From contig OY970230.1 in the NCBI GenBank assembly GCA_963714095.1, positions 198,206 through 262,205 of the forward strand: a stretch of 64,000 bases of DNA. Reading direction: 5' to 3'. Below, one piece after another: positions 4,996-64,000 of the stretch. The notes beneath the pieces were generated by a model, which was not told where the DNA came from, did no database searches, and saw only the letters and a list, made by a program, of their open reading frames with translations. The stretch's first letter is position 1. Each line of letters starts with the position of its first letter. A program made the position numbers and the translations under genes. This DNA is from Candidatus Gottesmanbacteria bacterium. GTDB taxonomy: Bacteria; Patescibacteriota; Microgenomatia; UBA10105; UBA927.

Positions 4996-5634
4996 CTAGA
5001 CTGCGCCTTTACCGGAGATCATTGCCCACGGACTCCTGAAAAGTATGGCGATATCCATGAGCAGTGACCGTTTTTTTACGTAATCCGCATCCATTTTAAT
5101 CCGTTTATCAAAATTCACCTCGCTTCTCCCCGACACCTGCCAATGCCCGGTAATGCCAGGTTTGGCAGACAGCACAATTTTCACTAAATTTTTGGTATGC
5201 GGGTATTTCCGCTGCTGTTCCACGAGTTCGTCCGGATAATACGGACGGGGTCCCACGAGACTCATGTCTCCGCGGATCACATTCACAAGCTGGGGAATTT
5301 CATCAAGAGAATGTTTCCTTATAAACCGTCCCACCCGAGTGACCCGGGGATCATCCAACAGTTTGTAACTATTCCGTTTATATTCGCTGTACAGTTTTGC
5401 CAACTTAGGATCACTCCGGAGCTGTTCATGGGCATTCACGACCATGGAGCGGAATTTAAAGAGTTTAAAGAGTTTCCCGTTTTTTCCGACCCGCTGGGGA
5501 GTATCGGCAAATACCGGACCTTCACTATCCAAAACAATTGCGACGGCTGTAATAAGGCTGATCGGCAGAAACAAAAGGAATATGAATATGCTTCCCACAA
5601 GATCAATGCATCGTTTAATAAACGTGTATATCAT
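4996..5634 (-). CDS. polyprenyl-phosphate sugar-phosphate transferase (small bacterial sugar transferase, WbaP/PglC-like)
   Basis: One N-terminal re-entrant hydrophobic helix. Motifs [21 protein letters not shown] and [14 protein letters not shown] are typical of the bacterial sugar transferase family. Confidence 0.9.
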
Positions 5635-5646
5635 ACGTTGAACCCC

Positions 5647-6729
5647 TCAGGTAAGATGCTCGTTTTGGGTACCCTTTAAACTTTCAACGAGTTTTTTAAT
5701 TTTCGGAACGGAGGATTTGTTGCAGACCAGAATCACATCGTTTGTTGCAACGATAAGGGCATCCTTCACGTCTATCGTCGTCACCAGCTGATCCGTGTAA
5801 TTATAGACCAATGAATCTTCCGTGTCCGTCAGGAGCACTTTTCCCTCCGTTACGTTTTTATCCGCAGCCTCCTCAAGCGCTTCTTTTAATGCTTCCCACG
5901 CCCCGATATCACTCCATCCGATATCCTCAGAAATAACATAGGCAGTAGACGGATTCAGATTTTCCAGAATCAGATTATCAAAACTGTTTTTTTCCAATGT
6001 AGGATAGACGCTGGCAAGCGTTTCCTCGAACCGATCTGTATGCCAGCTCTCGGAAATACGGGAAAGTCCCGCATATATATTCGGTGCAAACTGTTTATAT
6101 TGCGACCATAAAAATTGCGGCGTGGTGACAAAGTATCCTAGATTCCAAGCATGATGATCACTTTCAAAGTACCGTTTCGCTGTTTTTGCGTCAGGCCGGT
6201 ATTGACAGTCAACAAACGAATAAATTGGAATTTCGTTGGCGGTCATCATTCTTTTACCGTACTCAATCCACCCCAAATTTTCACTGGCAAACCGTGGTTT
6301 TTGCGCAACAAACACTATCCTGTTGGAATCTTTTTTTACAATTTCTCCTGCAGCAACAAGAATTTTCCGGAACAGTGCTTCCTTTTTTACCAAATGATCG
6401 CTCCACACAATGACCATAGGCTCCAGAGGAAAATCCCGGACAAGGAGTGACGTAATCAAACCAACCGCAGGCCCGACATCCCGCATCTCCGGCTCGCCTA
6501 TCACGTGATCAGGCGGCAATTCCCCTAATTGTTTTTGGACGATCGCAACATACGGCGCGCCCGTGGAAACATAGATGTCCTTCCATGAAAAGTCCGGCAG
6601 CAATCTGTTGGCTGCCAGCTGCAAGGTTGAGGAACTTCCTATAATTTTTTCAAACTGTTTCGGAGATTTTTTCCGGGAAAGCGGCCATAACCGCGTTCCC
6701 ACTCCTCCTGCAAAAATGACTGCTTTCAT
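5647..6729 (-). CDS. mannose-1-phosphate guanylyltransferase-like nucleotidyltransferase (no PMI domain)
   Basis: N-terminus MKAVIFAGGVGTRLWPLSRKKSPKQF is the ManC/NTP-transferase signature. Length 360 aa. Confidence 0.8.
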   Translation of the reverse strand: MKAVIFAGGVGTRLWPLSRKKSPKQFEKIIGSSSTLQLAANRLLPDFSWKDIYVSTGAPYVAIVQKQLGELPPDHVIGEPEMRDVGPAVGLITSLLVRDFPLEPMVIVWSDHLVKKEALFRKILVAAGEIVKKDSNRIVFVAQKPRFASENLGWIEYGKRMMTANEIPIYSFVDCQYRPDAKTAKRYFESDHHAWNLGYFVTTPQFLWSQYKQFAPNIYAGLSRISESWHTDRFEETLASVYPTLEKNSFDNLILENLNPSTAYVISEDIGWSDIGAWEALKEALEEAADKNVTEGKVLLTDTEDSLVYNYTDQLVTTIDVKDALIVATNDVILVCNKSSVPKIKKLVESLKGTQNEHLT

Positions 6730-7817
6730 TGTATTTTTGTGGCGAGTCTTTCAACCGTGACCCGCATTTCTTTTTTAAATCTTTCTATACCAAAACGTTC
6801 TGCGTTAGCTCTGCATGAACCGCTATCATACCACCCTTTGTTAAATATATGCAAAGCGCGGATCAACGATTCTTTTGTCTGTGCATCAAACAAAATTCCT
6901 GTTTTCCCTTCGATCACAGTTTCCGCCATGCCGCTCTGTCGATAACAGATAACCGGCTTACCGCACGATTGTGCTTCAAGAGCGATTAAACCAAAATCCT
7001 CATCGCCTGCGAACACAAAAGCACGGCACCTTTGATAATAGGCAACAAGATCTGCGTCTGTCAAATAACGCGTAATAAAAGTGATATTATTTTTTGCCCT
7101 CCTCTGCAACACCCGATTGCCCAATCCGCTCCCGATAATTATGAGCGGCCAGCCAAGCTCGTTAAACGCATCAATGACGAGATCTATGCGCTTGTATGGG
7201 ACAAAGCGGGATACCAAAAGAAAATAATTTTCCTTATTCTTTGCAATTCTAAATGTATTCGTATCTATCGGAGGATAAATCACCGTATCGACGTTGCGAT
7301 GATAATATTTCTTTATACGATCCGCGACGTGGCTCGAAATAGTAATGTAATAATCAGGCCGGGAAGAGGCAATTAAATCCCACCGCTTCAGGGTTGGTGT
7401 AAACATTTTCAACATACGTGCGGATACATAATCGGCCCGTTCCATATAGGTCGAATTTCCGCTCCATAAATACCGTGTCGGCGTAAGGCAATAGCAAATA
7501 TGGACGGTGCCCGGCTTGGTAATGATGTTTTTGGCTTCGGCAGACGTCACTGATAGAACCACATCGTACGCGTCAAAAGAAAATGACTCAAACGCCATAG
7601 GGGTAAGCCACGGAAACAGTTCGTGATGCCTTTTTGCAAACGGCACATGCTGCAGAAACGAAGTGTGAACGTCAAAAACGTCTGCCCATGACGCACGGCG
7701 CGGATCATAGACTGCGGTAAAAAGAGGCGCGTCCGGCCAAATCTCATGAAGAGCGAGTAAGACTCGTTCCGCCCCGCCCCATTTATTAACCCGGTCGTAC
7801 ACCAGTGCAATTTTCAT
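6726..7817 (-). CDS. glycosyltransferase family 4 (GT-B)
   Basis: C-terminal donor-binding region FAGDEDFGLIALEAQSCGKPVICY (E-x7-E type). 4-nt stop/start overlap with the downstream gene. Confidence 0.85.
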   Translation of the reverse strand: MKIALVYDRVNKWGGAERVLLALHEIWPDAPLFTAVYDPRRASWADVFDVHTSFLQHVPFAKRHHELFPWLTPMAFESFSFDAYDVVLSVTSAEAKNIITKPGTVHICYCLTPTRYLWSGNSTYMERADYVSARMLKMFTPTLKRWDLIASSRPDYYITISSHVADRIKKYYHRNVDTVIYPPIDTNTFRIAKNKENYFLLVSRFVPYKRIDLVIDAFNELGWPLIIIGSGLGNRVLQRRAKNNITFITRYLTDADLVAYYQRCRAFVFAGDEDFGLIALEAQSCGKPVICYRQSGMAETVIEGKTGILFDAQTKESLIRALHIFNKGWYDSGSCRANAERFGIERFKKEMRVTVERLATKIQ

Positions 7818-8271: not shown

Positions 8272-8782
8272 AAATAACTTCTATCTGCTCGGACAACACA
8301 TCAAAATGATCAAGAATTTCTTTTTTCGTACTTTCCGAAACGGCAATTATTTTTTCGCTCCAGAAAATTGCTTTTAACAGAGAAATATAATATCCCAGGC
8401 GGCGGATTTTGTAGAAAACATACGACAGCGTCGTTGCTTTTCCTGTGTCAAAATGCAAAATCGTCAGGTCGTGGATGGTCACGATACATTTTCCGAAATA
8501 GAAAAGCGGGACATTAAAATAGGGAACATGCAAAAGATCGAGATGCTCACTGTTAAAAATCGCCGGCATGAACAGCTGTTCAGTGACACTATGCCATGGA
8601 ATGTCCGCTAACCGTTTCGTCCATCTGGCATTAGGCAATGCAAACGAATCAAACGCAGATTTCCGTAAAAAAACCACGTAGGAATTTTTATCATCAATCT
8701 TCCCCAATTCTGCAATAAGATTGCGGACATATCGTCCGACGCCGGTCTCGTTTACAAGACGTGCATCTATGCCTATCTTCAT
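8261..8782 (-). CDS. glycosyltransferase family 4, N-terminal (acceptor) domain only
   Basis: MKIGIDARLVNETGVGRYVRNL opening. Ends ...IEVIYEG-stop at the end of the N-domain. Its last codons overlap the ATG of 7786..8271 (reverse-strand sequence GTTATTTATGAAGGATAA). Confidence 0.75.
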   Translation of the reverse strand: MKIGIDARLVNETGVGRYVRNLIAELGKIDDKNSYVVFLRKSAFDSFALPNARWTKRLADIPWHSVTEQLFMPAIFNSEHLDLLHVPYFNVPLFYFGKCIVTIHDLTILHFDTGKATTLSYVFYKIRRLGYYISLLKAIFWSEKIIAVSESTKKEILDHFDVLSEQIEVIYEG

Positions 8783-9648
8783 ATAGAAAATTGTTTTAAG
8801 AAAAATAACCGCATCGAATAAAATAGATTAATGACGAGAGATACAACCGGTCCGTATTTTTTCGCATAATGTTTTTTGTAAAACAGCCAGTTATACTCAT
8901 GAAAATAAATCTCGGTTATAACCGCCCGCGAACGAAGAGCACTGCTTCTTCCGCTCTGCTTCTTCTTATGAAGGACTATCGCCTCCGGATTAAACCACAC
9001 TTCCCAACCCTTCTGTTTAAACCGGTACGCCCAATCGATATCCTCAGCATACATAAAATAATCTTCATCAAGGAGACCCACCTCATGTATTGCCTCACTC
9101 CTAGCAAAGAAAAATGCACCGCTCACGCAGTCCACCTGATGGGGAATCGTGATATTTTTGTACCCCATGTGATACTGCCCGAAGATGCGCGACTCTGGGA
9201 ATAATTTTTCAAGACCAATCATATACGTGAAAGCTGCCCACGGCGTCGGGAATCCCCTGTGGCACGCCGGATCCATCTTTCCGTTTGCCAATTCCAGCCG
9301 GCAGGTGGCAGCCCCCGCCTTCAGGTGCCCGTCCATAAACCGCAGCATCGCGCCGATGGAGCCCTCCCGGATCTCCGTATCTGAATTTAACAGTAAAATA
9401 TATTTTCCTTTGGCAATTTTTATCCCTTTGTTATTCGCTTTGGCAAACCCTAAATTCTTCGTGTTCAAAATGAGCCGTATGTCGGGAATCTTTTTGAATA
9501 GTTCCGTGCTTCCGTCGGACGACCCGTTATCTACCACGATAATTTCCAACACTACTCCTTCCGACCACTTCCGTATCGAGTCCAGACATGCCTTCGTCAT
9601 GTCTTTTGTGTTGTAATTGACAATAATAATGGAAAGCTCAGTGTTCAT
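8779..9648 (-). CDS. glycosyltransferase family 2
   Basis: LSIIIVNYNTKD...EIIVVDNGSSDGS...LLLNSDTE is the GT-A DxD architecture, WbbL/rhamnosyltransferase-like. Length 289 aa. Confidence 0.9.
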   Translation of the reverse strand: MNTELSIIIVNYNTKDMTKACLDSIRKWSEGVVLEIIVVDNGSSDGSTELFKKIPDIRLILNTKNLGFAKANNKGIKIAKGKYILLLNSDTEIREGSIGAMLRFMDGHLKAGAATCRLELANGKMDPACHRGFPTPWAAFTYMIGLEKLFPESRIFGQYHMGYKNITIPHQVDCVSGAFFFARSEAIHEVGLLDEDYFMYAEDIDWAYRFKQKGWEVWFNPEAIVLHKKKQSGRSSALRSRAVITEIYFHEYNWLFYKKHYAKKYGPVVSLVINLFYSMRLFFLKQFSI

Positions 9649-10786
9649 ACGCTTCTATCCAAACTCTGTCCTGTTGTTGGGCTATCCTGTCCCACGAATA
9701 TTCTTTTTCTATAAGCGCACGGGCGTTATGTACGATATCCGCACGCTTTTTTGCGTCACGAAGTTTTACTATCGATTCCAAAATTTCATCAGTAGTATCG
9801 GCAACCAAAAAATGTTTTTCTGCTTCTCCCTGCATCCCCGCGATTCCCAAAGAAGAAGCTACAACCGGCAGTCCTGCTGCCATCGCTTCCAATATTTTAT
9901 ATTTTGTCCCGCCCCCGATACGTATAGGAGCCAGCATAATGTCTGCACCGTTGAGTTCATCCTGAATACTGTCTACGCTGCCGGCATAATACGGACCGCG
10001 CGGAGCATATTTACCCACGATACGAAGCTGAGCGTCGGGGTACACTTTGCCAATCGCTGGCCAAATATCATGGATAATGTACTGGGCTGCGTCCCTGTTT
10101 TCCATCCACCGGAAATTCCCGACATATAAAAATTTTGGATTTTTGGACATTATTTTTTTCGGACGGAATGCAAACGCCTTCGTATCTACGCCGTTGGGCA
10201 CGACGGAAACATTGGGCTGCCCTATATACGACCGGTCACTTTCCGACACGGAAATTATCTTTGTTGCCTTTCTCCACACATGCCGTTCCCACAATTTCAT
10301 TTTTATGACATCGCGTAAAAGCAGCGGCCGCAGTACACCGATTTTAAATTTCCTCACATAGGATTCATACACGGTATGTTCAATGTTATGTTCGGCTACA
10401 ACTATAGGAATACGGTGCTCCGTCGGAATCGAGGGCCATACGTATCCCGGCTCGATATGGATACAATCATAGTTACCCATGGAAATCTCATCAGATAAAA
10501 GCGCAAGCATCTCACTGTTATGATAACTTTGCCATAATAACGGGTATGAACCGATCATGGATTTTAATAGATATTTCGGCTGCCACACGCGTCCGCGGTG
10601 TACCGTTGTGACACTTTTACAAAATGACAATTCCGGCAAGTATTTCTTTTCACTTTCTGACCGGATAAACGAATAAAGATGGATCTCGTGTATTCCCGCG
10701 AGGCGTTTCAGTAAATTATATATGCGGATCTGACCTCCGGAGTACAGCGGGTATGGCAATATTGCTGATACGAATAAAATCTTCAT
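9638..10786 (-). CDS. glycosyltransferase family 4 (GT-B)
   Basis: MKILFVSAILPYPLYSGGQIRIYNLLKRL opening and C-terminal GGGTKYKILEAMAAGLPVVAS. Confidence 0.9.
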   Translation of the reverse strand: MKILFVSAILPYPLYSGGQIRIYNLLKRLAGIHEIHLYSFIRSESEKKYLPELSFCKSVTTVHRGRVWQPKYLLKSMIGSYPLLWQSYHNSEMLALLSDEISMGNYDCIHIEPGYVWPSIPTEHRIPIVVAEHNIEHTVYESYVRKFKIGVLRPLLLRDVIKMKLWERHVWRKATKIISVSESDRSYIGQPNVSVVPNGVDTKAFAFRPKKIMSKNPKFLYVGNFRWMENRDAAQYIIHDIWPAIGKVYPDAQLRIVGKYAPRGPYYAGSVDSIQDELNGADIMLAPIRIGGGTKYKILEAMAAGLPVVASSLGIAGMQGEAEKHFLVADTTDEILESIVKLRDAKKRADIVHNARALIEKEYSWDRIAQQQDRVWIEAYEH

Positions 10787-10790
10787 GAAT

Positions 10791-12236
10791 TTACTTTGCC
10801 GCAGCAGGTGTCGCTTCTTTTGGCTTTGTTAAATCAATGATTGCAAATGTATCGTTCCGTACTAATACCGTGTACTTTGCGGCAAGGTCGCGGGTCTCAG
10901 TATCGGCATCGGTTGGTGACACGGTGACGTATGCAGTTGCTCCCATGGCGATTTTCTTATCGATATCAAACCCCTCGGGCCAACCCTGACGCTGGGTCTG
11001 ATACAAAAATGTCGTGTCTCCGTTATATGGCGCTATCACTTTGGCATCTTTCGGAAGTATAGCGTCGGCGGCTTTCCCCGCCGCAACAATTTCAGGATGA
11101 TTAATCCAATAATATGTCCGTATCGTAAACCATGAAAAACCGAGCGCCGCGGCTATACTTAGAATCGCGACGATAATCCCGGGAATTTTCATTCTGAACA
11201 GTGATACGAAGCCTTTCGCGGTATAAATCGCGACAACCGGAAGAATAAGAATTTGATAATAATCATGCTGGACGTTGCCTGTGGCAAAAATAATAAAATA
11301 CAGAAGAGTTCCGACGGCTAACCATCGGAAAATCCATCCTTCTTTTTTATCCGCAGATGACGCCAGGCCTAAACCGAACGGGATAAGCCCCCAGAATCCG
11401 AGGATAAGATCTCCCAAACGGGTCGCAAAAAGCCAGTGAAACCATGCGCCTTTGAAGCGGATACCGTTGCCGTTTAATAACCATGTACTTGCCGGAATGC
11501 CTTCCGGAAATTGAAGTATCCAGCGGCGCCATAATAAAAGTGGGATCACCGAAATAGTGCCGTACAGAAGGTATTTAAAAAATGTTTGTTTCGAAATACC
11601 AGATTGCCTAAAAATAATATACGGGATGGGAATAAGAAGAAATACCGCCATGGGTTTAGACAACAATGCCAATGCGCCTGCAATAGCGCTGACAATGACC
11701 CAGCGAAAATTTTTCCTCCGCCCGACCAGCCACAAACTCAACACGGACCAGAATACCATCTGCGGATCCGGCAGTATGGTTCTGCCGTAGTACATACTGT
11801 ACGGCAGTACAGCAAAAAGAAATGCAGCAAACAAACCGGTAACAGGGTCAATATATTGGGCTACCAATAGTCCTAAGACAACCGTTGTTCCGGCGGATGC
11901 CGCGATCGTCACGATTCGGAGCCACACTTCAATCGGAATCTTCGGAATACTCAATTTGCCCAATACCGCAATAACCTGATAGATCGGGAATTCCACCATC
12001 CGCCAGCCCTGCGGGTTATCTTTACCGGATTGAATGTTCGAGAGGTCATCATATCTCGGGTGTAGTGGGTCTATCCCGAACCGCAAAAAATTCCGGGCAA
12101 CAGCAGCGGTATCGGCCTGGCGCCAACTATGCCAGTCCGCGACCGGATACGTAATATGGTATAACCGCACACCACAAGCCGCCACGCCAATACAAAACAA
12201 AAGGGGAATAAAATATTTAGCGATAAATTTTCCCAT
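10791..12236 (-). CDS. GT-C fold glycosyltransferase, PMT_2/ArnT-like (family 39/83-like)
   Basis: About 12 hydrophobic segments. The first-loop motif DWHSWRQADTAAVARNFLRFG is as seen in PMT_2-type lipid-carrier-dependent transferases. C-terminal soluble tail. Confidence 0.7.
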   Translation of the reverse strand: MGKFIAKYFIPLLFCIGVAACGVRLYHITYPVADWHSWRQADTAAVARNFLRFGIDPLHPRYDDLSNIQSGKDNPQGWRMVEFPIYQVIAVLGKLSIPKIPIEVWLRIVTIAASAGTTVVLGLLVAQYIDPVTGLFAAFLFAVLPYSMYYGRTILPDPQMVFWSVLSLWLVGRRKNFRWVIVSAIAGALALLSKPMAVFLLIPIPYIIFRQSGISKQTFFKYLLYGTISVIPLLLWRRWILQFPEGIPASTWLLNGNGIRFKGAWFHWLFATRLGDLILGFWGLIPFGLGLASSADKKEGWIFRWLAVGTLLYFIIFATGNVQHDYYQILILPVVAIYTAKGFVSLFRMKIPGIIVAILSIAAALGFSWFTIRTYYWINHPEIVAAGKAADAILPKDAKVIAPYNGDTTFLYQTQRQGWPEGFDIDKKIAMGATAYVTVSPTDADTETRDLAAKYTVLVRNDTFAIIDLTKPKEATPAAAK

Positions 12237-16074: not shown

Positions 16075-16638
16075 TCACTGGAAGAGCCTCGAAAACTTCA
16101 GCGTATAGTGAAGATTTTTCGACCGGTCTCGGATATGGCTAGCCGGGACCCCCCCGACCACTTCGTAGTCTCCCACGTCTTTGGTGACGACTGCCCCGGA
16201 TGCTATGACTGCCCCGCGTCCTACATGGACACCGGGTAAAATCGTAACTCTCGTTCCTATGACTGCATAATCATCGATAACAACCGGCGCCGCGACTTCG
16301 ACAAAATCCGGGCTATCTATATCATGCTCCATGGTGTAAATGCGTACTTCACCGGCAATCGACACATTATTGCCTATTTTTAATGGGTGTCCATTCGATT
16401 TTAGATAGGTAACGAAATTTTTCATCCGGCCGTCTAAAAATGCATCATTACCTATCACGGTATTGTGCCCTATCGCGACACCCGCCGGCTGATTAAACTC
16501 CGCACGCCAGTGAATAGAAGAGTCCTTTCCGATTTTAATCCGGAAGAGTGTCCGGTAAAGAAATAAACGAATCGTATGACTCGGAATATAGCCGGTAAGC
16601 GTACAAAGATATACCCAAAAATCTATGAGTGCCCTCAT
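16075..16638 (-). CDS. hexapeptide-repeat (left-handed beta-helix) O-acetyltransferase
   Basis: Repeats IGHNTVIGNDAFL, IGNNVSIAGEVRI, IDDYAVIGTRVTILPGVHVGRGAVIASGAVV. I moved the start to the ATG at 16638, which forms an ATGA overlap with the stop of 16635..17768. The listed ORF extends to 16695. Confidence 0.85.
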   Translation of the reverse strand: MRALIDFWVYLCTLTGYIPSHTIRLFLYRTLFRIKIGKDSSIHWRAEFNQPAGVAIGHNTVIGNDAFLDGRMKNFVTYLKSNGHPLKIGNNVSIAGEVRIYTMEHDIDSPDFVEVAAPVVIDDYAVIGTRVTILPGVHVGRGAVIASGAVVTKDVGDYEVVGGVPASHIRDRSKNLHYTLKFSRLFQ

Positions 16639-22077: not shown

Positions 22078-22081
22078 GCAT

Positions 22082-44421: not shown

Positions 44422-44500
44422 AAGTACAATTTCCTTGATTGTATCAAAAGCCGGACATTTCTTCTTGTAAGACATATAGAAGCGTCCTATACTTATCCGC
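44422..44500. promoter_or_regulatory. probable divergent promoter region
   Basis: 79-nt spacer between divergent starts at 44421 (-) and 44501 (+). Confidence 0.25.
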
Positions 44501-53686: not shown

Positions 53687-54441
53687 TCAGGATTCCGTTT
53701 CCATAATGTATTAAGACGTTCCAAATCCGCATATGTATCCATCGATTGCCAAAAACCTTTATGGACAAAAAGAGATAGCTCCCGGTCTTTAACAAGCCTT
53801 TTTAGTGCCTCATGTTCATATTCAGCCGGCCGCAGATAATTAAAAAACTTTTTATCAAATACCATAAATCCGCCGTTTACCCAATCCTGTAAAACAGGTT
53901 TTTCGACAAACTCCGTTACCCTGTGTTTAACATTTTGCCGGACCATTCCGTATTTACTTTTCGGATACACGCCAGTTATGGTACCGATTGTTTTTTGTTT
54001 TCTGTGAAACTGAACTAATTGCCGGATATTGATATTAGACACACCGTCCCCGTACGTAACCATAAAATCTTTATCAGTTTTCGGGATATAATCTTTTACA
54101 CGTATTATTCTTTCACCCGGAAGTGTCCCCTCTCCCGTATCTACAAAGGTAATTTTGAAATTATCGGCGGCAGATGGGTTTTTATGAAAAATCGCTGAGC
54201 CGGATTTTGTGGATAACGTAAAATTTTGTGAAAAATATTTTTGATTTAAAAAATACTCCTTAATCATATCCCCCTTATACCCGAGGGCAATGATAAAATC
54301 ATTAAACCCGTAGTACGCATACATTTTCATGATATGCCACAGGATTGGTTTATTGCCGACCAACACCATGGGTTTTGGTTTAAACTCTGTTTCCTCCTTT
54401 AATCTGTATCCTATACCGCCACATAAAATAATCGTCTTCAT
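53665..54441 (-). CDS. rfbF: glucose-1-phosphate cytidylyltransferase
   Basis: MKTIILCGGIGYRLKEETEFKPKPMVLVGNKPILWHIMKMYAYYGFNDFIIALGYKG is the canonical RfbF N-terminus. Length 258 aa. Confidence 0.92.
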   Translation of the reverse strand: MKTIILCGGIGYRLKEETEFKPKPMVLVGNKPILWHIMKMYAYYGFNDFIIALGYKGDMIKEYFLNQKYFSQNFTLSTKSGSAIFHKNPSAADNFKITFVDTGEGTLPGERIIRVKDYIPKTDKDFMVTYGDGVSNINIRQLVQFHRKQKTIGTITGVYPKSKYGMVRQNVKHRVTEFVEKPVLQDWVNGGFMVFDKKFFNYLRPAEYEHEALKRLVKDRELSLFVHKGFWQSMDTYADLERLNTLWKRNPEWKIWKD

Positions 54442-54498: not shown

Positions 54499-55608
54499 TT
54501 AGATGTGTATTGCTTTATTTAATAAATGGAGACTTTGTTTAACGGCATCTGTCCAACGCAGGTTGGCTACCCACTTTCTGGCGTTTATTTGATATTCTTT
54601 ATAGTGTAATTTGTCTCTATATAATTTCACCGCCTCCCGTGCCATTTCTCGGGGCGAGCAGCTTTCGATAACCATCCCTGTTTTTCCATGAATGACAACG
54701 TCCCTCAATCCGGGAACGTTATAAACAATTGCAGGTGTGCCTACGGACGCAGCCTCAAGAACAACAAGTCCCCACCCCTCTTTCACAGATGCGTGAAGAA
54801 GAAGGTGTGCCCGTGCCATACGGTTATATTTTTCTTTTTCAGAAACGTTTCCAAAAAAGATTACCCGTTCTTTTATACCGTATTCCGTTATCATTCTTTT
54901 CAATTCATCGATATACTCAGGCTCACCGCCTCCGATAATCCATAACACTGCATCCGTCTGTTCACGCACAATAAACGAAAACGCTTTAATAACCTCCTCG
55001 ATACCCTTCATACGGACGACACGGGATACAAACAGGTATGTAGGATGTATTTCTTTATTTTTCGAGGTTATATGAAACCGGCCGTGTACGGTAATCGGAC
55101 AGGGAATATTTACGCATTGTGATCGGGGAATACCGCGGGATACCAGTTCATCAATCGTCGACGGCGCATCCGTCCAAAAATAACAGTGACGATACAATCG
55201 GAAACACCATCGTTCCAGAAATTTTCCGATGACGTTTTTGGGAAACGAAAACATATAATCCCATATTTCTCCTGCTATCTCATGAATAAAAACGACGACC
55301 GGTTTCCCAGTGAAGAGCGTAGAAAAAAAAGGAAATCCGTGCACCTCGTCGACAATGATATCAAAAGCATTCCTGTGAGTAAGCAAGTAAAATGGGACGT
55401 ACAGATATATTGTGAGTGAGCCCGCCCGCCGGATAAAACGGACACTCTGAACCGTTTCTTCTTTTTTAGCACCGGAATATGCGGCAGTGAGCCATGTCAC
55501 ATCATTCCCCGCTGCCACCCACCCCTTTGCATGCTCAAAGGTCACTACTTCGGCCCCTCCGGATTTCGGATGACGAACATCACGCCAATTAAGTATTAAT
55601 ATGCGCAT
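54499..55608 (-). CDS. glycosyltransferase family 4 (GT-B)
   Basis: MRILILNWRDVRHPKSGGAEV opening. C-domain EGWGLVVLEAASVGTPAIV. Confidence 0.9.
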   Translation of the reverse strand: MRILILNWRDVRHPKSGGAEVVTFEHAKGWVAAGNDVTWLTAAYSGAKKEETVQSVRFIRRAGSLTIYLYVPFYLLTHRNAFDIIVDEVHGFPFFSTLFTGKPVVVFIHEIAGEIWDYMFSFPKNVIGKFLERWCFRLYRHCYFWTDAPSTIDELVSRGIPRSQCVNIPCPITVHGRFHITSKNKEIHPTYLFVSRVVRMKGIEEVIKAFSFIVREQTDAVLWIIGGGEPEYIDELKRMITEYGIKERVIFFGNVSEKEKYNRMARAHLLLHASVKEGWGLVVLEAASVGTPAIVYNVPGLRDVVIHGKTGMVIESCSPREMAREAVKLYRDKLHYKEYQINARKWVANLRWTDAVKQSLHLLNKAIHI

Positions 55609-58858: not shown

Positions 58859-58872
58859 ACGTTATCGCGTAT

Positions 58873-60336
58873 CTAGCGCCATTCCTCTGTTTGCCTGTAT
58901 ATCTCACTGGAGTTGATACGTTGATACCCCGCCTTACTAAGCTCTGCACTTGAACTGCCGGACAAATCCAAAAAAGACGTGCCCCCTATACGAAATGATT
59001 GCCGATTTTCAACATTATTTGATGGTATCATATTCATTCCGATTTTAATTCCTGCCTCACCTGCCCGCCCTTCCGCCTCCAGGAACAGCTCTAGGGCTAA
59101 GGGTAAAGGATATTGAGCTTTATAATCATACAAAGCAATGTGTTTTCCTGGGTACCGTGAATATAACGATGTTTTCCAAATCTTAACTAATTGATCTACC
59201 ACATTAACTTTTCCTGTAATCTCTCTACAATCGGATGTAAAGCTCATTATAACAACGAATAGACAAACTAGAATTCCCAGGAATCGAGATTTCATAAATA
59301 TCTTATAAACTACCCAGGCGGAAAGGGTGAGGATAAATGGCTGAAGAAATACCGTATAGCTATCGAATAAAGGAACGTGTGAGTAGCGGAGCATACCTAA
59401 AATTCCGAAAAAAGAACAAATAATTACAATAAATTCAGCAACAATTTTTTTTCTGATGCATCCATATATAAATAACACCGAGACCAATATCATAAAGCCT
59501 GCTCCTATAAATTGATTGCCTCCGATTATTCTTCCCCATGTCGTTGGCCAATAAATTGTAAGGTATGTCAACCATCTTCTTCCTAAAGCTTCCAGTGGTA
59601 TGCGATACTGATCAAAACGGATGTAATAGATCATATTTCTCATATTAACGAACCCGTTCCGTATATCGAATAGTAATATCGGTAATGCACCAATAATACC
59701 GCCTGCGAGTAACAAAAGAACATTTGATACGTGAAATTTTTTCTCCGTGATTTGTGCGATTAAAACACAAATTCCGAGGATAAAAAGACCGCTACCCTGA
59801 AGATGAAAAGACGCACCCGTTGAAATCAAAAAACCTAATGCAAAGATATAACGGTTCTTACCTGATCGTAAAAAACGAACAACTGACCATAATGCGAATA
59901 TCGATATTATTGCCAAGGGAGATTCATTTGTCAGGCTGACTGATTGAGCGATTTGAGCGGTTGATACCGCGCTAAATAATCCCAATAAAATTCCAAACTT
60001 CGTATCAATTAACTCTGTACCAAACTGAATCATCAAGTAAACAAAAAAAACATATATCAAAGTCAAAACTATCCAGGGAGTTAAGACAGAAGCCGGATAT
60101 AACGCGGTTGCCGCCATAATAAACCAATACCACTGACCACCTGTTTGAAATGGTCCAGCTGACGAAAAAGGTCCGAGAAGCGGAATTTTATGTTCAGCGA
60201 GAGCCGCACGGGCAACAAGAGCGTCATGAGCTTGATCATACCCGAGCTCCCAACGATTACCATAATCGTAAAACCTCAAAATAAATGCCAAGAGAACAAT
60301 GCCTACTGTAACGATAATTATGCTATGTTTCTTCAT
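58873..60336 (-). CDS. GT-C fold glycosyltransferase, ArnT/PMT_2-like
   Basis: First loop LRFYDYGNRWELGYDQAHDALVARAAL, more than 11 TM segments and a soluble C-terminal ~110 aa. Sits beside the DPM1-like GT2 at 60353..61039. Confidence 0.7.
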   Translation of the reverse strand: MKKHSIIIVTVGIVLLAFILRFYDYGNRWELGYDQAHDALVARAALAEHKIPLLGPFSSAGPFQTGGQWYWFIMAATALYPASVLTPWIVLTLIYVFFVYLMIQFGTELIDTKFGILLGLFSAVSTAQIAQSVSLTNESPLAIISIFALWSVVRFLRSGKNRYIFALGFLISTGASFHLQGSGLFILGICVLIAQITEKKFHVSNVLLLLAGGIIGALPILLFDIRNGFVNMRNMIYYIRFDQYRIPLEALGRRWLTYLTIYWPTTWGRIIGGNQFIGAGFMILVSVLFIYGCIRKKIVAEFIVIICSFFGILGMLRYSHVPLFDSYTVFLQPFILTLSAWVVYKIFMKSRFLGILVCLFVVIMSFTSDCREITGKVNVVDQLVKIWKTSLYSRYPGKHIALYDYKAQYPLPLALELFLEAEGRAGEAGIKIGMNMIPSNNVENRQSFRIGGTSFLDLSGSSSAELSKAGYQRINSSEIYRQTEEWR

Positions 60337-60352
60337 GAAGACTACACAGTTA

Positions 60353-61039
60353 CTAATTTATAAACCGGTATTTAATGATCGTCCAGAAAGCAATAATGCC
60401 GTCACGCCATGTCAGTTTTTTCCCTTCATTAAACTTTCTTCCGTAATAGGAAATAGGGACTTCATATATTTGGTACCCGTTTTTAAGTACTTTGACTGTA
60501 AGTTCCGGTTCGACATCAAACCGCTTGGCACGAATCGTGATTCCGTTCAGCACCCCATGCCGGAATACTTTGTAACAGGTTTCCATATCCGTGATATCGG
60601 TATTGAATAATATGTTTGTTACAAATGTCACAAATTTATTCCCCTGCGCATAAATGAACATAGTTGAAAGATGTGGGCCCAAAAATCGCGAGCCGTACAC
60701 CACATCAACGTGCGGGTTGTCAAATGGAGATAAAAGCACGGGGTAATCGTTCGGACTATATTCCAAATCCGCATCCTGAACCAAGATCACGTCTCCCGTA
60801 GCTTTTTTAAATCCGATGCTTAAGGCGTTTCCCTTTCCTTCATTTTTTTCTTTGTAAATAACACGTACCTTCTTCTCCCAGGATTTCAAAACCGTTTTTG
60901 TGCGGTCTTTTGATCCGTCATCAACAACAATTATTTCCTTTGACCAGCCGGGTATGGCAACCTTTTCGATCCGCTGAAGGATTTCGTTAATCGTATGTTC
61001 TTCGTTATACACGGGTACGATAACGGAAAGTTTTTTCAC
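60353..61039 (-). CDS. polyprenyl-phosphate glycosyltransferase, GT2 (DPM1/ArnC-like)
   Basis: LSVIVPVYNEEHTI...IIVVDDGSKDRT...GKGNALSIGF...VQDADLEYSP. Length 228 aa. Confidence 0.82.
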   Translation of the reverse strand: MKKLSVIVPVYNEEHTINEILQRIEKVAIPGWSKEIIVVDDGSKDRTKTVLKSWEKKVRVIYKEKNEGKGNALSIGFKKATGDVILVQDADLEYSPNDYPVLLSPFDNPHVDVVYGSRFLGPHLSTMFIYAQGNKFVTFVTNILFNTDITDMETCYKVFRHGVLNGITIRAKRFDVEPELTVKVLKNGYQIYEVPISYYGRKFNEGKKLTWRDGIIAFWTIIKYRFIN

Positions 61040-62076
61040 ACCAATGCCCTTTCATACGCCGCGACAGTCTCCACTACGACTCTTTTCCAGGTAAACTGTT
61101 TTACCCATACCAATTGACGCATCGCCTGAGCTCGTCTGTCGACAGTAAGCATTTTCTTTATGCCCGCAAGGATCTCTTCCGGTTTTGGTGACACCTGTAA
61201 CGCCGGCCCTGCTATCTCTTTGAGGCTTGAGGTATTTGTGCAAACAACCGGGCAACCGCAGGCCATAGCTTCCAGTACCGGCAGACCGAATCCCTCATAG
61301 TAAGAGGGTTGTACATAGACCGAAGCCATGGAGTAAAAACCAGCAAGATCAGCCAGAGGCACGTTTCCCGGACAAATAACCACGTGTTCCAAATCATGCT
61401 CAAGAATAAACTGATTGATTTCCTGCGTTTCGGTGAGCGTCTCGCAAAATGCTCGGCCGACAAGAACTAATTTATATTCTAATAATTCACTGTGTTGACG
61501 AAGCGCTGCAAAAGCCTGCAATAGCCCGATCACATTTTTATTCCAATTGACGTCCCCGACAAAAAGAATATATTGTTTTGGTAAGGCATATTTCTTTCGT
61601 ATAGCAGCTACTAATTTTGAATCGGTAACCGGATGATACATCGCGTCACGAGCTAAATAAACAGTATCGACAATCTCTTTTTTAACGCCTACAATCCGTA
61701 CAATATCATTTTTTGAAGCGTTTGAGTCAGCAATAATTCGACTCGCGCCTCGAAGTGACAATTTCTGGACCTGCCATTTGATGTTGCCGCGGATGCCTGC
61801 CGGAAATTTGTACGGGAACACCAGAGGAATAAGGTCGTGAACCGTCACCAAAGTCGGCTCCGGTTTAACCAGAGGCAACGTCAGGAAAAACGGGTCAAAA
61901 TACGGATAATGCACGATATCTGCATCGTCCGGCACACGCTGATGACCTGTAAAATAAATATATGTGTGCTGTTTTCCGTATTTTTCCAACCCATCAATAA
62001 GATTCTTCGTATACACACCGATCCCCCGTGCGCGATGCGCGGATTCCAAAGGAGTTATGTCTATTGCTACCTTCAT
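61036..62076 (-). CDS. glycosyltransferase family 4 (GT-B)
   Basis: I chose the start at the ATG at 62076 (MKVAIDITPLESAHRARGIGVYTKNL), which forms an ATGA overlap with the upstream stop. C-domain EGFGLPVLEAMACGCPVVCT. The listed ORF extends to 62169. Confidence 0.9.
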   Translation of the reverse strand: MKVAIDITPLESAHRARGIGVYTKNLIDGLEKYGKQHTYIYFTGHQRVPDDADIVHYPYFDPFFLTLPLVKPEPTLVTVHDLIPLVFPYKFPAGIRGNIKWQVQKLSLRGASRIIADSNASKNDIVRIVGVKKEIVDTVYLARDAMYHPVTDSKLVAAIRKKYALPKQYILFVGDVNWNKNVIGLLQAFAALRQHSELLEYKLVLVGRAFCETLTETQEINQFILEHDLEHVVICPGNVPLADLAGFYSMASVYVQPSYYEGFGLPVLEAMACGCPVVCTNTSSLKEIAGPALQVSPKPEEILAGIKKMLTVDRRAQAMRQLVWVKQFTWKRVVVETVAAYERALV

Positions 62077-63641
62077 TGTAAAGAAGTATACCCTAAAATG
62101 ACCAGAACGGCCACGCTTATAACTGAAAGCGCATCCGCGACTTTTCGCACGGGCGTATCGGCAAACCACACGCGGATAGCGTGAGTTCCCTGCGGCACGG
62201 ATATATGTATGATGCCGTCACCTCTATAGTTGATGGGGACTTCTTTGCCGTCAACGGATGCTGTCCATCCGGGAAAATACAGCGTACTCACCGTTACAGT
62301 ACCGGCTTTGTCCATAAGGACGGTAAAATCCTTTTCCATGTACTCCCAACGAGTCTTCTGGGTCATCTGCCCGTTTTCAATTGCATACGGTGCTGCCGGC
62401 CGAGTAGTTTTCCATCCTGTCCAGATCGTCGAGAAACTGTTTCCCATAGACGAGGTTCCGTCGGTAAAATTCGGCCTTGCCAGGTAGTATGCCTCGTTTC
62501 GCGGTTCATAAAGAACCGGACGTGCGTAGGACGCGGCAAGCGCGACACTCAAAACAGCCAAGAATAACCCCCACCACGGACGTTTTAGTCTACTAGTCCA
62601 TACTGCCGCGCTGAAACCGGCAACCGGAATAACAAATGATAACAATCTCCAGGGGTATTGCACAAACGAGAGAGGCTTTATAAGCTCCCACAGAGGAGTA
62701 GAAATCGGCAACATAAAAACGATGCACAAACCGATGATACTCAAAAAATACGCAAATAATTTCGTGTAAGCGCTTTTTGGCTTACGCAACAAAACCCATA
62801 ATGCTCCTGCCATTGCCAACATCGGGGCTATTCCTATCTGTACGGACATGGCAGTACCAAAACTTCCGGTTCCTGAAAAACCTGTTCCCCAGGATGGAAT
62901 TAATAGTTCATACCAGTCAACAAAATATTGCCGGAAGTTCACGGTATTGAGACCCACAACATATTTGGATTCGATAAGTGCCGGCAGCCAGAAAAATGCG
63001 GAAAGTCCGATCCCACCAAGCATCCATAGGGCTCCTTTTTTATTCCGAATAAGAGCATACCCCAGTAAAAACGGCGTATAAAGCATCGCCATGATGTTGT
63101 GCGAAAGAATAAGGAGCCCATATACAATAGCGAACCAGAATAACTTTTTCTTTTCCAGCAGGTAAAAGCACAACAAAAGAAATGCAGTCGCCCAGACTTC
63201 ACCGATCGATCCGCGCACGTACATATCGACAAAAAGATACGGGACAAAGGCGGCAACGATTGATCCGACTGCGGACGGAAGGGCACCAAACAGGGTCAGT
63301 AGCCAGAGAAAAGCCGCCGCTGAGAGTGCTATATACCCCAAACCCATACTCATCTGAAATGCGTATACAGCATCATGAGTCAACATGCGCATAAATGAAC
63401 CGATATAGTCAGGCATGGGGTACTGATAATTAAAAATGGGTATCCCGTACCCGCTGTTCATATCCGGCGCCCATCGGGGAACTATGTATCCGGCTCCCAA
63501 CATCCGGGAAAATTCGACGATGCGGATAATATGATATTCACCGTCATGTGTCGGTATATACGCCTTACCAAACAGTGGACTGACCGCAAAAAAAATTGCC
63601 GCAATACATATGACGGCGGAGAGGACTACAGTTTTTTTCAT
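62073..63641 (-). CDS. polytopic membrane protein, PTPS-related-domain / GT-C-like, with C-terminal ectodomain and terminal TM anchor
   Basis: N-terminal loop HDGEYHIIRIVEFSRMLGAGYIVPRWAPDMNSGYGIPIFNYQYPMPDY resembles the membrane 6-pyruvoyl-tetrahydropterin-synthase-related family. The C-terminus has LYFPGWTASVDGKEV ... then the SVISVAVLVILG anchor. Confidence 0.65.
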   Translation of the reverse strand: MKKTVVLSAVICIAAIFFAVSPLFGKAYIPTHDGEYHIIRIVEFSRMLGAGYIVPRWAPDMNSGYGIPIFNYQYPMPDYIGSFMRMLTHDAVYAFQMSMGLGYIALSAAAFLWLLTLFGALPSAVGSIVAAFVPYLFVDMYVRGSIGEVWATAFLLLCFYLLEKKKLFWFAIVYGLLILSHNIMAMLYTPFLLGYALIRNKKGALWMLGGIGLSAFFWLPALIESKYVVGLNTVNFRQYFVDWYELLIPSWGTGFSGTGSFGTAMSVQIGIAPMLAMAGALWVLLRKPKSAYTKLFAYFLSIIGLCIVFMLPISTPLWELIKPLSFVQYPWRLLSFVIPVAGFSAAVWTSRLKRPWWGLFLAVLSVALAASYARPVLYEPRNEAYYLARPNFTDGTSSMGNSFSTIWTGWKTTRPAAPYAIENGQMTQKTRWEYMEKDFTVLMDKAGTVTVSTLYFPGWTASVDGKEVPINYRGDGIIHISVPQGTHAIRVWFADTPVRKVADALSVISVAVLVILGYTSLQ

Positions 63642-64000
63642 ACCTTTCGTTTCGCAAGATACCGGAATCCGAGATATCCCGCATAGAAGACTAAAGGAAT
63701 GACGGTTAATCCGGAACGAAGAGCGGGCCCGGGTCCTTCATAATACCCCATCCACATATACGGAAGATTCCGTAGTTCCAAGGCAAATGAGAGTACTATC
63801 GTAAATCCCCACAAATACCGATGTGACGCAAACGGCAATAATGCTGCGGTTGCAACGAGCCATACTGCATACCATGGATACAATTCTTCGCGGATCGGGG
63901 CAACGATAAAAAAGACCGCTGCCAGAAAAATATATGCATATACGAGCATCCGTTCAAAAGAGACATTCCGGAAAAACAGAAGTGGCGCCAATACAACCGT
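63638..64000 (-). CDS. membrane protein, 5' end beyond window edge (partial)
   Basis: The listed start at 63991 is a TTG, and the frame stays open to nt 64000 (upstream codons give T-V-V). The sequence is hydrophobic throughout. 4-nt overlap with the downstream gene. Confidence 0.5.
   Translation of the reverse strand, partial: TVVLAPLLFFRNVSFERMLVYAYIFLAAVFFIVAPIREELYPWYAVWLVATAALLPFASHRYLWGFTIVLSFALELRNLPYMWMGYYEGPGPALRSGLTVIPLVFYAGYLGFRYLAKRKV

Follow-up and report, generated by a model that had tools for sequence, protein, structure and literature searches.

Why would a bacterium with a genome of about 1.09 Mb keep a glycan locus so rich in large polytopic membrane proteins, and what could such a locus build? 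The question is raised by a 64,000-nucleotide stretch of DNA (the window) from Candidatus Gottesmanbacteria, a member of the Microgenomates within the candidate phyla radiation (CPR; contig OY970230.1, positions 198,206 to 262,205). An initial annotation, made from the sequence alone, had described the 59 kb from position 4996 to the window edge as a glycan-assembly "super-locus" with an excess of polytopic proteins resembling GT-C glycosyltransferases (GTs). At a probability of roughly 60%, we favor a polyprenol-based envelope-glycan pathway in which a cytoplasmic phase and Wzx flipping would be followed by an unusually large extracytoplasmic GT-C phase. Positions below are those of the window, genes are named by their first coordinate, and comparison loci carry L numbers.

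All 55 open reading frames (ORFs) of the window were scanned with Pfam and selected ones with NCBIfam; transmembrane (TM) segments were counted by a hydropathy scan and oriented by the positive-inside rule. The ORF boundaries agree exactly with those given initially, and from the DUF4012 gene and the phosphoglycosyltransferase (PGT) gene at 4996 onward to the window edge only glycan genes are found, as had been claimed. Long ORFs lie on the minus strand except for four; neighboring genes overlap at 25 of the 54 junctions, and gaps longer than 60 nt occur only six times. The transferases, put initially at about 11 of GT4 type and eight of GT2 type, were counted as ten GT4-domain ORFs (6726, 7786, 8261, 9638, 16635, 17765, 36578 on the plus strand, 38820, 54499 and 61036) and eight GT2 ORFs (8779, 15202, 22082, 34587, 41672, 43594, 56824 and 60353); two of the ten are halves of one frameshifted gene and another is a conserved ORF with the N-domain only. 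Sugar supply is represented by ManC, GalE, four further short-chain dehydrogenase/reductase (SDR) enzymes, a glucose-1-phosphate cytidylyltransferase-like and a CDP-glucose dehydratase-like protein, and modification by three DegT proteins, one GNAT, two hexapeptide acyltransferases, one Acyl_transf_3 protein, two methyltransferases and a split transketolase-like pair. The window holds one PGT, one Wzx and one Wzy_C-like protein; of the last two, both named initially, Wzx passes its Pfam cutoff (37 bits against 23), whereas Wzy_C stays below threshold (23.7 against 31.7). The reported lack of export genes also held: Wza, Wzc and Wzz had no Pfam match among the ORFs of the window or in those parts of its flanks that L081 and L083 cover, and ABC exporters (ABC_tran or ABC2_membrane, for Wzm/Wzt or TagGH), LytR-CpsA-Psr (LCP) ligases, lipid A genes and transposases had none among the 55 ORFs. 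No tRNA or mobile-element boundaries were found in the window. The initial gene list was incomplete in one respect, having overlooked a conserved 73-aa membrane-protein gene (20915-21136, minus strand).

The hydropathy scan agrees that all 13 membrane proteins listed initially are polytopic; the 12 that are complete have 7-18 hydrophobic segments each. The large polytopic proteins occupy 40% of the 59-kb region. Counting complete ORFs that reach both 480 aa and seven TM segments, we find 12 in these 59 kb, or about 20 per 100 kb, against 1.65 per 100 kb in 1.15 Mb of unrelated comparison DNA (GlyRS-anchored loci from diverse bacteria, originally fetched for another purpose), so that the window is about 12-fold denser. 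This excess is well beyond chance. The 13 proteins are the following:

10791-12236, minus strand: PMT_2/ArnT-type GT-C, 481 aa, conserved core; PMT_2 35.5 bits against a cutoff of 26.1, PMT 24.4 against 22.7
12240-15233, minus strand: 997-aa, 18-TM fusion of an N-terminal Wzy_C/O-antigen-ligase-like part and a C-terminal GT-C-like module, core
18327-19940, minus strand: polytopic protein, 537 aa; no Pfam or NCBIfam match
22814-25096, minus strand: 760-aa protein with a signal anchor, a DUF3863-like ectodomain of about 440 aa and six C-terminal TM segments
25121-26980, minus strand: protein with predicted GT-C fold, 619 aa, 13 TM segments and a C-terminal alpha/beta domain, core; Pfam-less family
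26984-28726, minus strand: AftD/MmpA-like protein with predicted GT-C fold, core; model pLDDT 89.5
28669-31629, minus strand: 986-aa paralog of 26984 with a GT-C module, an ectodomain of about 520 aa and a C-terminal TM segment, core
31626-33356, minus strand: PMT_2-type GT-C candidate, 576 aa; PMT_2 25.2 bits against 26.1, model positions 4-156 of 160
40021-41694, minus strand: polytopic GT-C candidate, 557 aa, variable island; no Pfam match; QDEW past TM1
44994-46997, minus strand: PMT_2-type GT-C candidate, 667 aa; PMT_2 22.1 bits against 26.1, positions 2-152 of 160; WD past TM1
58873-60336, minus strand: PMT_2-type GT-C candidate, 487 aa; PMT_2 20.5 bits against 26.1, positions 7-158 of 160
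62073-63641, minus strand: PTPS_related/YfhO-type GT-C, 522 aa; PTPS_related 30.3 bits against 26.4
63638-64000, minus strand: 3' part of a 380-aa, 8-TM gene running off the window, complete in L083

Are these proteins GT-C enzymes? Structures were modeled with AlphaFold2 (AF2) for 25121 and 26984, the two most conserved of the six Pfam-less membrane proteins. In fold searches, the polytopic cores of both models proved structurally similar to solved GT-C enzymes, as the initial annotation had foreseen, and we regard the prediction of a GT-C fold as firm for both. A transporter or unrelated fold was rejected for the two proteins: transporter matches had a Foldseek probability below 0.4 and a TM-score of about 0.1. 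For 26984 the best match is AftD (6w98; E=2e-6, TMq 0.55-0.58, about 576 alignment columns), followed by STT3, AftA, AglB, DPY19 and PglB. The protein has 449 homologs and no Pfam match; D26, D179, R181, D259, E285, D351 and D493 are invariant in its family, and the best PDB hit of the family profile is AftD, at E=1.7 only. 25121 has none of the motifs WWD, WWE or W.D.G (the WWDxG of STT3/PglB/AglB), though its fold is similar.

Three further assignments may be called firm. The profile of 28669 aligns with the 26984 family at 100% in hhalign (E=3e-42) and with the PTPS_related family at 88%; G-H-D past TM1 is invariant, and homology to 26984 firmly predicts a GT-C. The second is 10791, which passes its Pfam models and has orthologs 50-63% identical and syntenic in L084, L095 and L096. 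The third, 62073, passes the model of PTPS_related, which we take to be a member of Pfam's GT-C clan; its YfhO score (24.8 bits) is below the cutoff of 28.5, and THDGEYH follows TM1.

A second group is probable. The PMT_2 scores of 31626, 44994, 58873 and a 542-aa protein beyond the window edge in L083 are sub-threshold, yet nearly the full model aligns at the expected position; 31626 also has WDE past TM1 and orthologs in L089, L117 and L118. The three window proteins are therefore probable PMT_2-type GT-Cs. Likewise 40021, which aligns with the C-terminal module of 12240 at 93.7% in hhalign, is probably a GT-C, as is the C-terminal half of 12240 itself (86% against the PMT_2 family, with an invariant DD past a TM segment). 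The 12240 family is 47-56% identical in at least ten loci, and the protein carries the motif DYHRMLGETG (H-x3-L-x-E-x-G). The gene at the edge, 63638, is a probable GT-C by a precomputed label, PF26314 (MptA_B_family), which neither hmmscan, whose local Pfam may lack the model, nor a PDB search reproduced.

The two remaining proteins differ. The 18327 family has 410 relatives, none of the 53 sampled with a Pfam match, and an invariant D58 past TM1; it is not in the core of relatives. Searches of PDB and hhalign comparisons with the 25121 and 26984 families gave nothing significant, the best profile match being co-linear but only 41%, to the family of 62073. A 1096-aa product (P0248) joins a 62073-type PTPS_related part to a following 18327-type part, either as a true fusion or as a merged gene call. 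Architecture, D58 and this fusion suggest that 18327 is a GT-C. The profile of the 22814 family, in contrast, matches PDB 3lm3 (E=0.002), one member has Pfam DUF3863, and there is no profile similarity to GT-C families. Four relatives (P0389, P0392, P0393 and P0399; 1279-1319 aa) contain a 25121-type GT-C followed by a 22814-type part, again true fusions or merged gene calls. Since the order is that of the adjacent genes here, 22814 may be an accessory of the 25121 GT-C. Of the set of 13 described as GT-C-like, then, two are upheld by fold, two by Pfam and 28669 by homology, whereas 22814 drops out.

Most of the set also shares an acidic motif 5-15 residues past an N-in TM1, namely DD, DE, WDE, QDEW, GHD or THDGEYH, which is invariant where alignments exist. 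It is present in 10791, the C-terminal module of 12240, 18327, 28669, 31626, 40021, 44994, 58873 and 62073. The overall count is ten of 13, with 22814, 25121 and the partial 63638 as exceptions; the G-D segment of 26984 has no TM1 before it. Judged only by hydropathy and the positive-inside rule, nine proteins may have such a motif in the first outside loop, as predicted; 22814 fails and 26984 lacks the helix.

Sequence searches added little. PDB profile searches returned nothing significant for the families of 25121, 12240, 28669, 18327 and 31626 or for the 380-aa protein of L083, and neither Pfam at E<=10 on six membrane proteins nor per-member scans of the 18327 and 12240 families added anything. 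Recent expansion by paralogy was rejected, all-against-all BLASTP pairing only 26984 with 28669. Weak DUF5667 matches (22-23 bits, below cutoff) occur at residues 673-747 of 28669 and in a separate 162-aa protein (L083 3157-3645); the system might use DUF5667 repeatedly as an extracytoplasmic module. The longest ORF of 26984 starts with TTG and has 58 nt in common with the upstream gene; the public start lies 18 codons downstream, which gives 562 aa and nearly abuts the stop of 28669-31629.

A GT-C fold need not mean catalysis. 26984 and 28669 have weak NCBIfam matches to corynebacterial MmpA (37 and 25 bits, with the cutoff at 210), a protein reported to be homologous to the N-terminal 668 residues of AftD, without recognizable catalytic domains and needed for trehalose-lipid transport (PMC8698533); the AftD-like fold of 26984 agrees with this match. 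The two, and perhaps 18327, might therefore be scaffolds or factors delivering lipids or glycolipids, and the 26984 family, unlike its paralog 28669, has no TM helix ahead of the conserved N-terminal G-D segment. Against such a role stand the many invariant acidic and basic residues of the 26984 family, the invariant G-H-D of 28669, the match of the 26984 fold to catalytic AftD over those 576 or so alignment columns and the distance of the MmpA scores from their cutoff, and we consider it quite improbable.

We then asked how widely this arrangement is kept. A metagenome scan anchored on the 25121 family yielded 80 loci. In at least 12 independent Microgenomates contigs, one gene order is kept at 45-80% amino-acid identity: 28669, 26984, 25121, SDR, the 73-aa gene, GalE, GT4 N-domain, GT4, hexapeptide acyltransferase, GT2, 12240 and 10791. 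Relative to this core (9.6-31.6 kb), the window carries insertions, namely 22814 with 22082 and, separately, 18327. Inside the core, five or six GT-C-type genes are interleaved with cytoplasmic GTs and the Wzy_C-like fusion. Its remaining genes are:

9638-10786, minus strand: GT4 at the core edge; Glyco_trans_1_4 69.7 bits; syntenic in L026, L078 and L084
15202-16071, minus strand: GT2; Glycos_transf_2 85.5 bits; 49-80% identical, syntenic
16075-16695, minus strand: hexapeptide-repeat acyltransferase; Hexapep; 66-77% identical, syntenic
16635-17768, minus strand: GT4; Glycos_transf_1 110.6 bits; 57-66% identical, syntenic
17765-18325, minus strand: stand-alone GT4 N-domain protein, 186 aa; Glyco_transf_4 only
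19900-20910, minus strand: GalE, UDP-glucose 4-epimerase; NCBIfam galE 398.8 bits against 262.3
20915-21136, minus strand: 73-aa membrane protein, 2-3 TM segments; found by ORF scan in an apparent 222-nt gap between GalE and SDR
21133-22116, minus strand: SDR dehydratase or epimerase; Epimerase 171.7 bits; 61-75% identical, syntenic

The 73-aa gene recurs at 51-66% identity in 22 related Microgenomates loci, each time between SDR and GalE; we speculate that its product may be a membrane partner of the TM-less GT2s or a flippase subunit. At least 14 related loci have an ORF of its own for the N-domain protein 17765, inverted in some, and by analogy with Alg13/Alg14 this acceptor-side domain could be a subunit pairing with a C-domain-only protein. 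Because order and sequence are conserved across Microgenomates, the core product is probably a lineage-wide, housekeeping-type envelope glycopolymer or glycoconjugate.

The locus as a whole is a mosaic of this lineage-conserved core, a variable island and a semi-conserved module for sugar modification, flipping (Wzx) and GT-C transfer. The distal part of the last (54.5-64 kb) is syntenic with L121 at 58-77% identity and brings together the flippase and most of the candidate donor synthases; a further one, 22082, adjoins the core genes:

22082-22792, minus strand: small soluble GT2; top NCBIfam models AglJ, PpgS and ArnC, below cutoffs
54499-55608, minus strand: GT4; Glycos_transf_1 132 bits; 58% identical, syntenic in L121
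55617-56807, minus strand: DegT aminotransferase; Pfam 198.6 bits
56824-57615, minus strand: small soluble GT2; top NCBIfam models ArnC, PgfS and PpgS, below cutoffs; 73% identical, syntenic in L121
57602-58858, minus strand: Wzx/MOP flippase; Polysacc_synt_3 37.2 bits against 23; at least nine TM segments
60353-61039, minus strand: small soluble GT2; NCBIfam AglJ 111 bits and Dol-P-hexose transferase 69 bits, below cutoffs; 77% identical in L121
61036-62169, minus strand: GT4; Glycos_transf_1 109 bits

How might these parts work together? On the cytoplasmic face, the PglC/WbaP-type PGT (4996) would prime polyprenyl phosphate. GT4 and GT2 enzymes, in an order and with substrates that we propose only tentatively, would then extend a lipid-linked oligosaccharide from GDP-Man, UDP-Gal(NAc) and a modified CDP-hexose or aminosugar, the sugars being supplied by ManC, GalE, the SDRs, the three DegT proteins, GNAT, the methyltransferases and the split transketolase-like enzyme. 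The single Wzx (57602) would flip lipid-linked intermediates. On the outer face, the Wzy_C-like half of 12240, a weak domain call, could polymerize or ligate the glycan, and about ten GT-Cs would add or extend sugars, presumably from polyprenyl-phosphate monosaccharides. The donors could come from the three TM-less GT2s resembling DPM1, PpgS and GacI, plus a fourth just past the window, and we infer this donor type from the adjacency of these candidate polyprenyl-phosphate-sugar synthase genes to the GT-C genes: 56824 (GT2), 57602 (Wzx), 58873 (GT-C) and 60353 (GT2) form one run, and a 56% identical ortholog of 22082 adjoins the 26984 ortholog in L096 and L097. The 73-aa protein may assist in this, the ectodomain protein 22814 may work with the 25121 GT-C, as the fusions in four relatives suggest, and a low-GC (guanine plus cytosine) island at 33-45 kb, with parts of the distal module, would supply strain-variable decoration. 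The product might be a wall-linked polymer, a lipoglycan or a glycoprotein, with mannose, Gal(NAc) and an acetylated or methylated amino-dideoxyhexose as its predicted sugars.

The three small GT2s (228-263 aa) had been described initially as DPM1/ArnC-like. Their best NCBIfam matches, the haloarchaeal Dol-P-hexose transferase included, indeed all make polyprenyl-phosphate sugars, but the scores fall far below the equivalog cutoffs. AglJ and PgfS are moreover components of protein-glycosylation systems, 10791 passes the Pfam PMT model, and GalE beside a GT2 and GT-Cs recalls the S. mutans Pgf cluster. Many of the GT-Cs might accordingly be protein O- or N-glycosyltransferases (PMT, Pgf, TMEM260 or oligosaccharyltransferase-like) instead of builders of a polysaccharide, each with its own target among the S-layer proteins, pilins or other surface proteins of the episymbiont. 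On the other side, 25121 has no WWDxG, the PMT_2-type proteins have no MIR domains (10791, which passes the PMT model narrowly, is only 481 aa long and has none by Pfam), the PGT, Wzx, Wzy_C-like domain and about 18 cytoplasmic GTs indicate a polymeric lipid-linked glycan, and no candidate acceptor protein is encoded in the locus. Such a role for the GT-Cs seems unlikely to us.

The mosaic itself bears on whether the modules share one product. The low-GC island (about 32-45 kb) has a GC content of 0.36-0.40, against 0.44-0.49 elsewhere, and both plus-strand genes of the locus (33382-34593 and 36578-37765) lie in it. Its genes have few homologs in related loci, and the regions upstream of 28669 orthologs vary between relatives; it looks like a strain-variable or horizontally acquired cassette. 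The genes of the island and of the sugar-modification stretch that follows it, other than the polytopic proteins listed above, are:

33382-34593, plus strand: Acyl_transf_3 membrane O-acyltransferase, island; Pfam 98.4 bits
34587-35612, minus strand: GT2, island; Glycos_transf_2 47.3 bits
35769-36455, minus strand: hexapeptide acyltransferase, island; Hexapep
36578-37765, plus strand: GT4, island; Glyco_trans_1_4
37774-38823, minus strand: SDR epimerase or dehydratase, island; Epimerase 132.8 bits
38820-39983, minus strand: GT4, island; Glycos_transf_1 60 bits
41672-42709, minus strand: GT2; Glycos_transf_2 97.4 bits
42772-43587, minus strand: S-adenosylmethionine (SAM) methyltransferase; DUF268, Methyltransf_11
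43594-44670, minus strand: GT2; Glycos_transf_2 94.4 bits
46976-47680, minus strand: SAM methyltransferase; Methyltransf_11, Methyltransf_25
47721-49031, minus strand: DegT sugar aminotransferase or dehydratase; Pfam 296 bits; 69% identical ortholog in L118
49028-49954, minus strand: transketolase-like subunit with pyrimidine-binding and C-terminal domains; Transket_pyr, Transketolase_C
49951-50796, minus strand: transketolase-like subunit with the thiamine-diphosphate-binding N domain; Transketolase_N
50922-52034, minus strand: DegT aminotransferase; Pfam 330 bits
52021-52719, minus strand: GNAT N-acetyltransferase; Acetyltransf_3, Acetyltransf_1
52724-53686, minus strand: CDP-glucose 4,6-dehydratase-like SDR; NCBIfam CDP_4_6_dhtase 189.5 bits, below cutoff
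53665-54441, minus strand: glucose-1-phosphate cytidylyltransferase-like protein; NCBIfam G1P_cyt_trans 272.8 bits against 300

The position of the transketolase-like pair beside DegT and CDP-hexose genes suggests a two-carbon branch or an unusual side chain on a sugar. The pair also occurs, 40-42% identical, in an unrelated Bacteroidaceae locus (L068).

A patchwork of this kind could also consist of independent adjacent loci, one conventional Wzx/Wzy-type cluster for a capsule or wall polysaccharide and several separate GT2-GT-C decoration cassettes (like Gtr, Csb/YfhO and Csd of Gram-positives), brought together only by the packing of glycan genes in a 1-Mb genome. Adjacency of GT2 and GT-C genes is typical of decoration cassettes (PMC8035078), PGT, Wzx and Wzy_C-like protein each occur once in the window, the modules differ in conservation and GC, with opposite-strand genes in the island, and they are shuffled relative to GlyRS in L026 and L078. 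One-to-one cassettes fit poorly, however, with 10-12 GT-C candidates for three or four candidate donor synthases, with five or six GT-C-type genes interleaved with cytoplasmic GTs in a strictly conserved core and with the many overlapping junctions and few gaps. We hold this explanation possible but doubtful; it overlaps the polyprenol-based pathway rather than excluding it. The "super-locus", with modules so differently conserved, may thus not form a single pathway.

Several observations weigh against the pathway proposed here. With about 18 cytoplasmic GT4 and GT2 genes, the greater part of the structure could arise inside the cell, and modules so unequal in conservation and GC may serve several unrelated glycans. 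Five putative GT-Cs depend on sub-threshold Pfam scores or on hhalign values of 86-94%, nothing links 18327 significantly to a GT-C, and 22814 is not a GT-C. Wzy_C, already below its cutoff in 12240, is matched by only two of nine members of that family. MmpA, the nearest relative of 26984 and 28669 that has a name, is reported to be without recognizable catalytic domains and possibly a membrane anchor for a complex (PMC8698533). The small GT2s, at 54-111 bits against equivalog cutoffs of 325-529 and with no TM segment, may be ordinary GT2s, and the window encodes neither a GtrA-type flippase nor an acceptor protein, in addition to lacking LCP ligases. Extracytoplasmic assembly is plausible, but the cytoplasmic GTs speak against the "most" in the initial claim that most of the glycan is built or decorated outside; together with the PGT and Wzx they also fit a conventional repeat unit made in the cytoplasm and decorated outside.

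A bolder version of the polyprenol-based pathway would have the core specify a Microgenomates-wide, probably essential envelope glycopolymer, with most chain growth outside the membrane through unrecognized GT-C families: 25121 with the DUF3863-like 22814, the AftD-like 26984 and 28669, and the Wzy_C and GT-C fusion 12240. We put this forward tentatively, thinking it more probably wrong than right. If true, this would be a new class of pathway for bacterial cell-wall polymers and, in CPR, a counterpart of arabinogalactan and lipoarabinomannan (LAM) or of teichoic acids.

At lower coordinates than the core lies a module in which the order DUF4012-PGT-ManC-GT4-GT4-GT2-GT4 is kept in L078, with synteny also in L051 and L026. 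GlyRS-RecO-DUF4012-PGT(-GT4) is kept in the WWE3 locus L051 and DUF4012-PGT in L078. This module and the left edge of the window contain:

left window edge: histidine phosphatase (Pfam)
602-1075, minus strand: 157-aa protein with one TM segment, adjoining GlyRS; no Pfam match
1085-2371: GlyRS (Pfam)
2384-2944: RecO (Pfam)
2946-4940, minus strand: DUF4012 single-pass membrane protein, 664 aa; Pfam 79.9 bits; one TM segment
4996-5634, minus strand: initiating PGT of the small Bac_transf type, 212 aa; Bac_transf 202 bits
5647-6729, minus strand: ManC-like mannose-1-phosphate guanylyltransferase; NTP_transferase and ManC beta-helix; NCBIfam GMP_PMI 213 bits, below cutoff
6726-7817, minus strand: GT4; Glycos_transf_1 95.5 bits
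7786-8271, minus strand: GT4 C-terminal half; Glycos_transf_1 78.9 bits
8261-8782, minus strand: GT4 N-terminal half; Glyco_transf_4 42 bits
8779-9648, minus strand: GT2; Glycos_transf_2 95 bits

The GlyRS-RecO neighbors, DUF4012 and a PTPS-related protein, all named initially, were matched by Pfam. The halves 7786 and 8261 lie in different frames with an 11-nt overlap and form a single ORF in L078. An assembly artifact was rejected as the cause of the split, since a Logan assembly made independently from short reads (L082) has it too; the split may reflect a genuine frameshift or pseudogene, or the two halves may be real subunits of one GT4. In L081, a long contig of the same organism, the region 5982-7323 (about 7.8-9.6 kb of the window) has the GT2 8779-9648 broken into ORFs of 146 and 129 aa, and further ORF calls differ from those of the window as well, which suggests indels or assembly errors between assemblies of this genome.

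The source and surroundings of the window could also be established. A guess at Patescibacteria, offered initially as weak, was right: clustering at 90% identity puts GlyRS together with a protein of Candidatus Gottesmanbacteria, and homologs of the membrane proteins carry the names Gottesmanbacteria, Levybacteria, Daviesbacteria or Microgenomates group. Left of the window are the division and cell wall (dcw) genes mraZ, mraW, ftsL, a penicillin-binding protein gene and murE. At the other end, L083 has the same sequence as the window and extends 4.4 kb beyond it, through the rest of the 380-aa, 8-TM gene, a DUF5667 protein, the fourth small GT2, the 542-aa polytopic protein (a paralog of 62073; PMT_2 20.3 bits, below the cutoff of 26.1) and a partial polytopic ORF. 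In at least 4.4 kb past the edge there are thus three further polytopic proteins, and the flanks consist of dcw genes on one side and GT-C and GT2 genes on the other, with no exporter just beyond the window. Neither outcome named initially as a refutation, transporter or unrelated folds for most of the large membrane proteins or a routine cluster with export genes just outside, was thus observed. Because L083 continues the glycan genes, the locus measures at least 65 kb, from about 3 kb to beyond 68 kb, or over 6% of the genome.

The 157-aa protein beside GlyRS is conserved at 33-36% identity in the same position in L001 and L026. L001, whose GlyRS is 73% identical to that of the window, is titled "uncultured Gammaproteobacteria", as is L026, and L078 bears the title "uncultured Pseudomonadales"; L026 and L078 are clearly syntenic with this CPR locus. 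All three titles are probably mislabeled taxonomy of metagenome-assembled genomes.

CPR bacteria, or Patescibacteria, make up a large share of bacterial diversity and live attached to host cells, and their envelope glycans are chemically uncharted. Here at least 6% of a genome of about 1.09 Mb goes into a single glycan locus, and about 2% into large GT-C-type proteins. That half of the GT-C-type set keeps its order across Microgenomates points to a product with a central place in their biology, plausibly for the integrity of the wall or for attachment to the host. At least three widespread Pfam-less families can now be defined (25121, 26984/28669 and 22814, plus 18327). They could serve in the annotation of thousands of "hypothetical" CPR proteins, as candidates for heterologous expression and as a guide to cryo-electron tomography and glycomics data from CPR enrichments. 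Full-text searches found no literature linking GT-C enzymes to Patescibacteria or describing such loci, which does not prove its absence.

How, finally, does the locus compare with known systems? Wzx/Wzy loci for O-antigen or capsule share with it a PGT (202 bits here), many GT4 and GT2 genes, sugar-nucleotide genes, a MOP flippase (37 bits against 23), a Wzy_C-like protein and a low-GC variable part. Unlike them, the window has no Wzz/Wzc, Wza or LCP ligase, its Wzy_C-like module comes as part of a fusion with a GT-C-like one, 40% of the coding length belongs to GT-C genes, and the core is conserved across a candidate superphylum-level group instead of varying between strains.

The pathways for arabinogalactan, lipomannan and LAM (AftA-D, EmbA-C, MptA/B and PimE, with PpgS/Rv3779 and MmpA) likewise use many GT-Cs to build a wall glycan outside from polyprenyl-phosphate sugars, and the small GT2s of the window match PpgS. 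The initial likening of the locus to mycobacterial assembly has backing at the level of folds, because the fold neighbors include AftD and AftA, but not at that of families or pathways. The window has no Emb-type Arabinose_trans, DUF3367, GlfT or mycolate machinery, and by Pfam no UbiA-type transferase or DprE1/2 domains of the decaprenyl-phospho-arabinose donor pathway; its proteins are 10-14% identical to the solved enzymes, and its CPR host, without an outer mycomembrane, has Wzx and a Wzy_C-like domain. STT3/PglB/AglB oligosaccharyltransferases and the C-mannosyltransferase DPY19 are also among the closest known systems.

In the multi-component transmembrane glycosylation systems of Gram-positives (CsbB/GtcA/YfhO, GtlA/GtlB, CsdAB and GacI/GacJ/GacK/GacL), a cytoplasmic GT2 makes a polyprenyl-phosphate sugar, a flippase moves it and a polytopic GT-C transfers the sugar to a surface polymer (PMC8035078). 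The window resembles them in that small GT2s adjoin GT-Cs, the run 56824-57602-58873(-60353) recalling a GacI/GacK/GacL variant, in that the 73-aa membrane protein could play the role of GacJ, and in having PTPS_related/YfhO-type and PMT_2-type GT-Cs. In those systems each GT2 has a single GT-C partner, and the two do no more than decorate a polymer of other origin, whereas the window has 10-12 GT-C candidates for three or four GT2 donor synthases, no GtrA-type flippase that we could find, and GT-Cs, several of them Pfam-less, in a lineage-conserved core together with backbone enzymes. The mechanism class, GT-Cs using polyprenyl-phosphate sugars in multi-component transmembrane glycosylation, is already known; what is new is the scale and density of GT-Cs in a 1-Mb CPR genome, the five or six of them in a Microgenomates-wide core and several widespread Pfam-less families, two with predicted GT-C folds.

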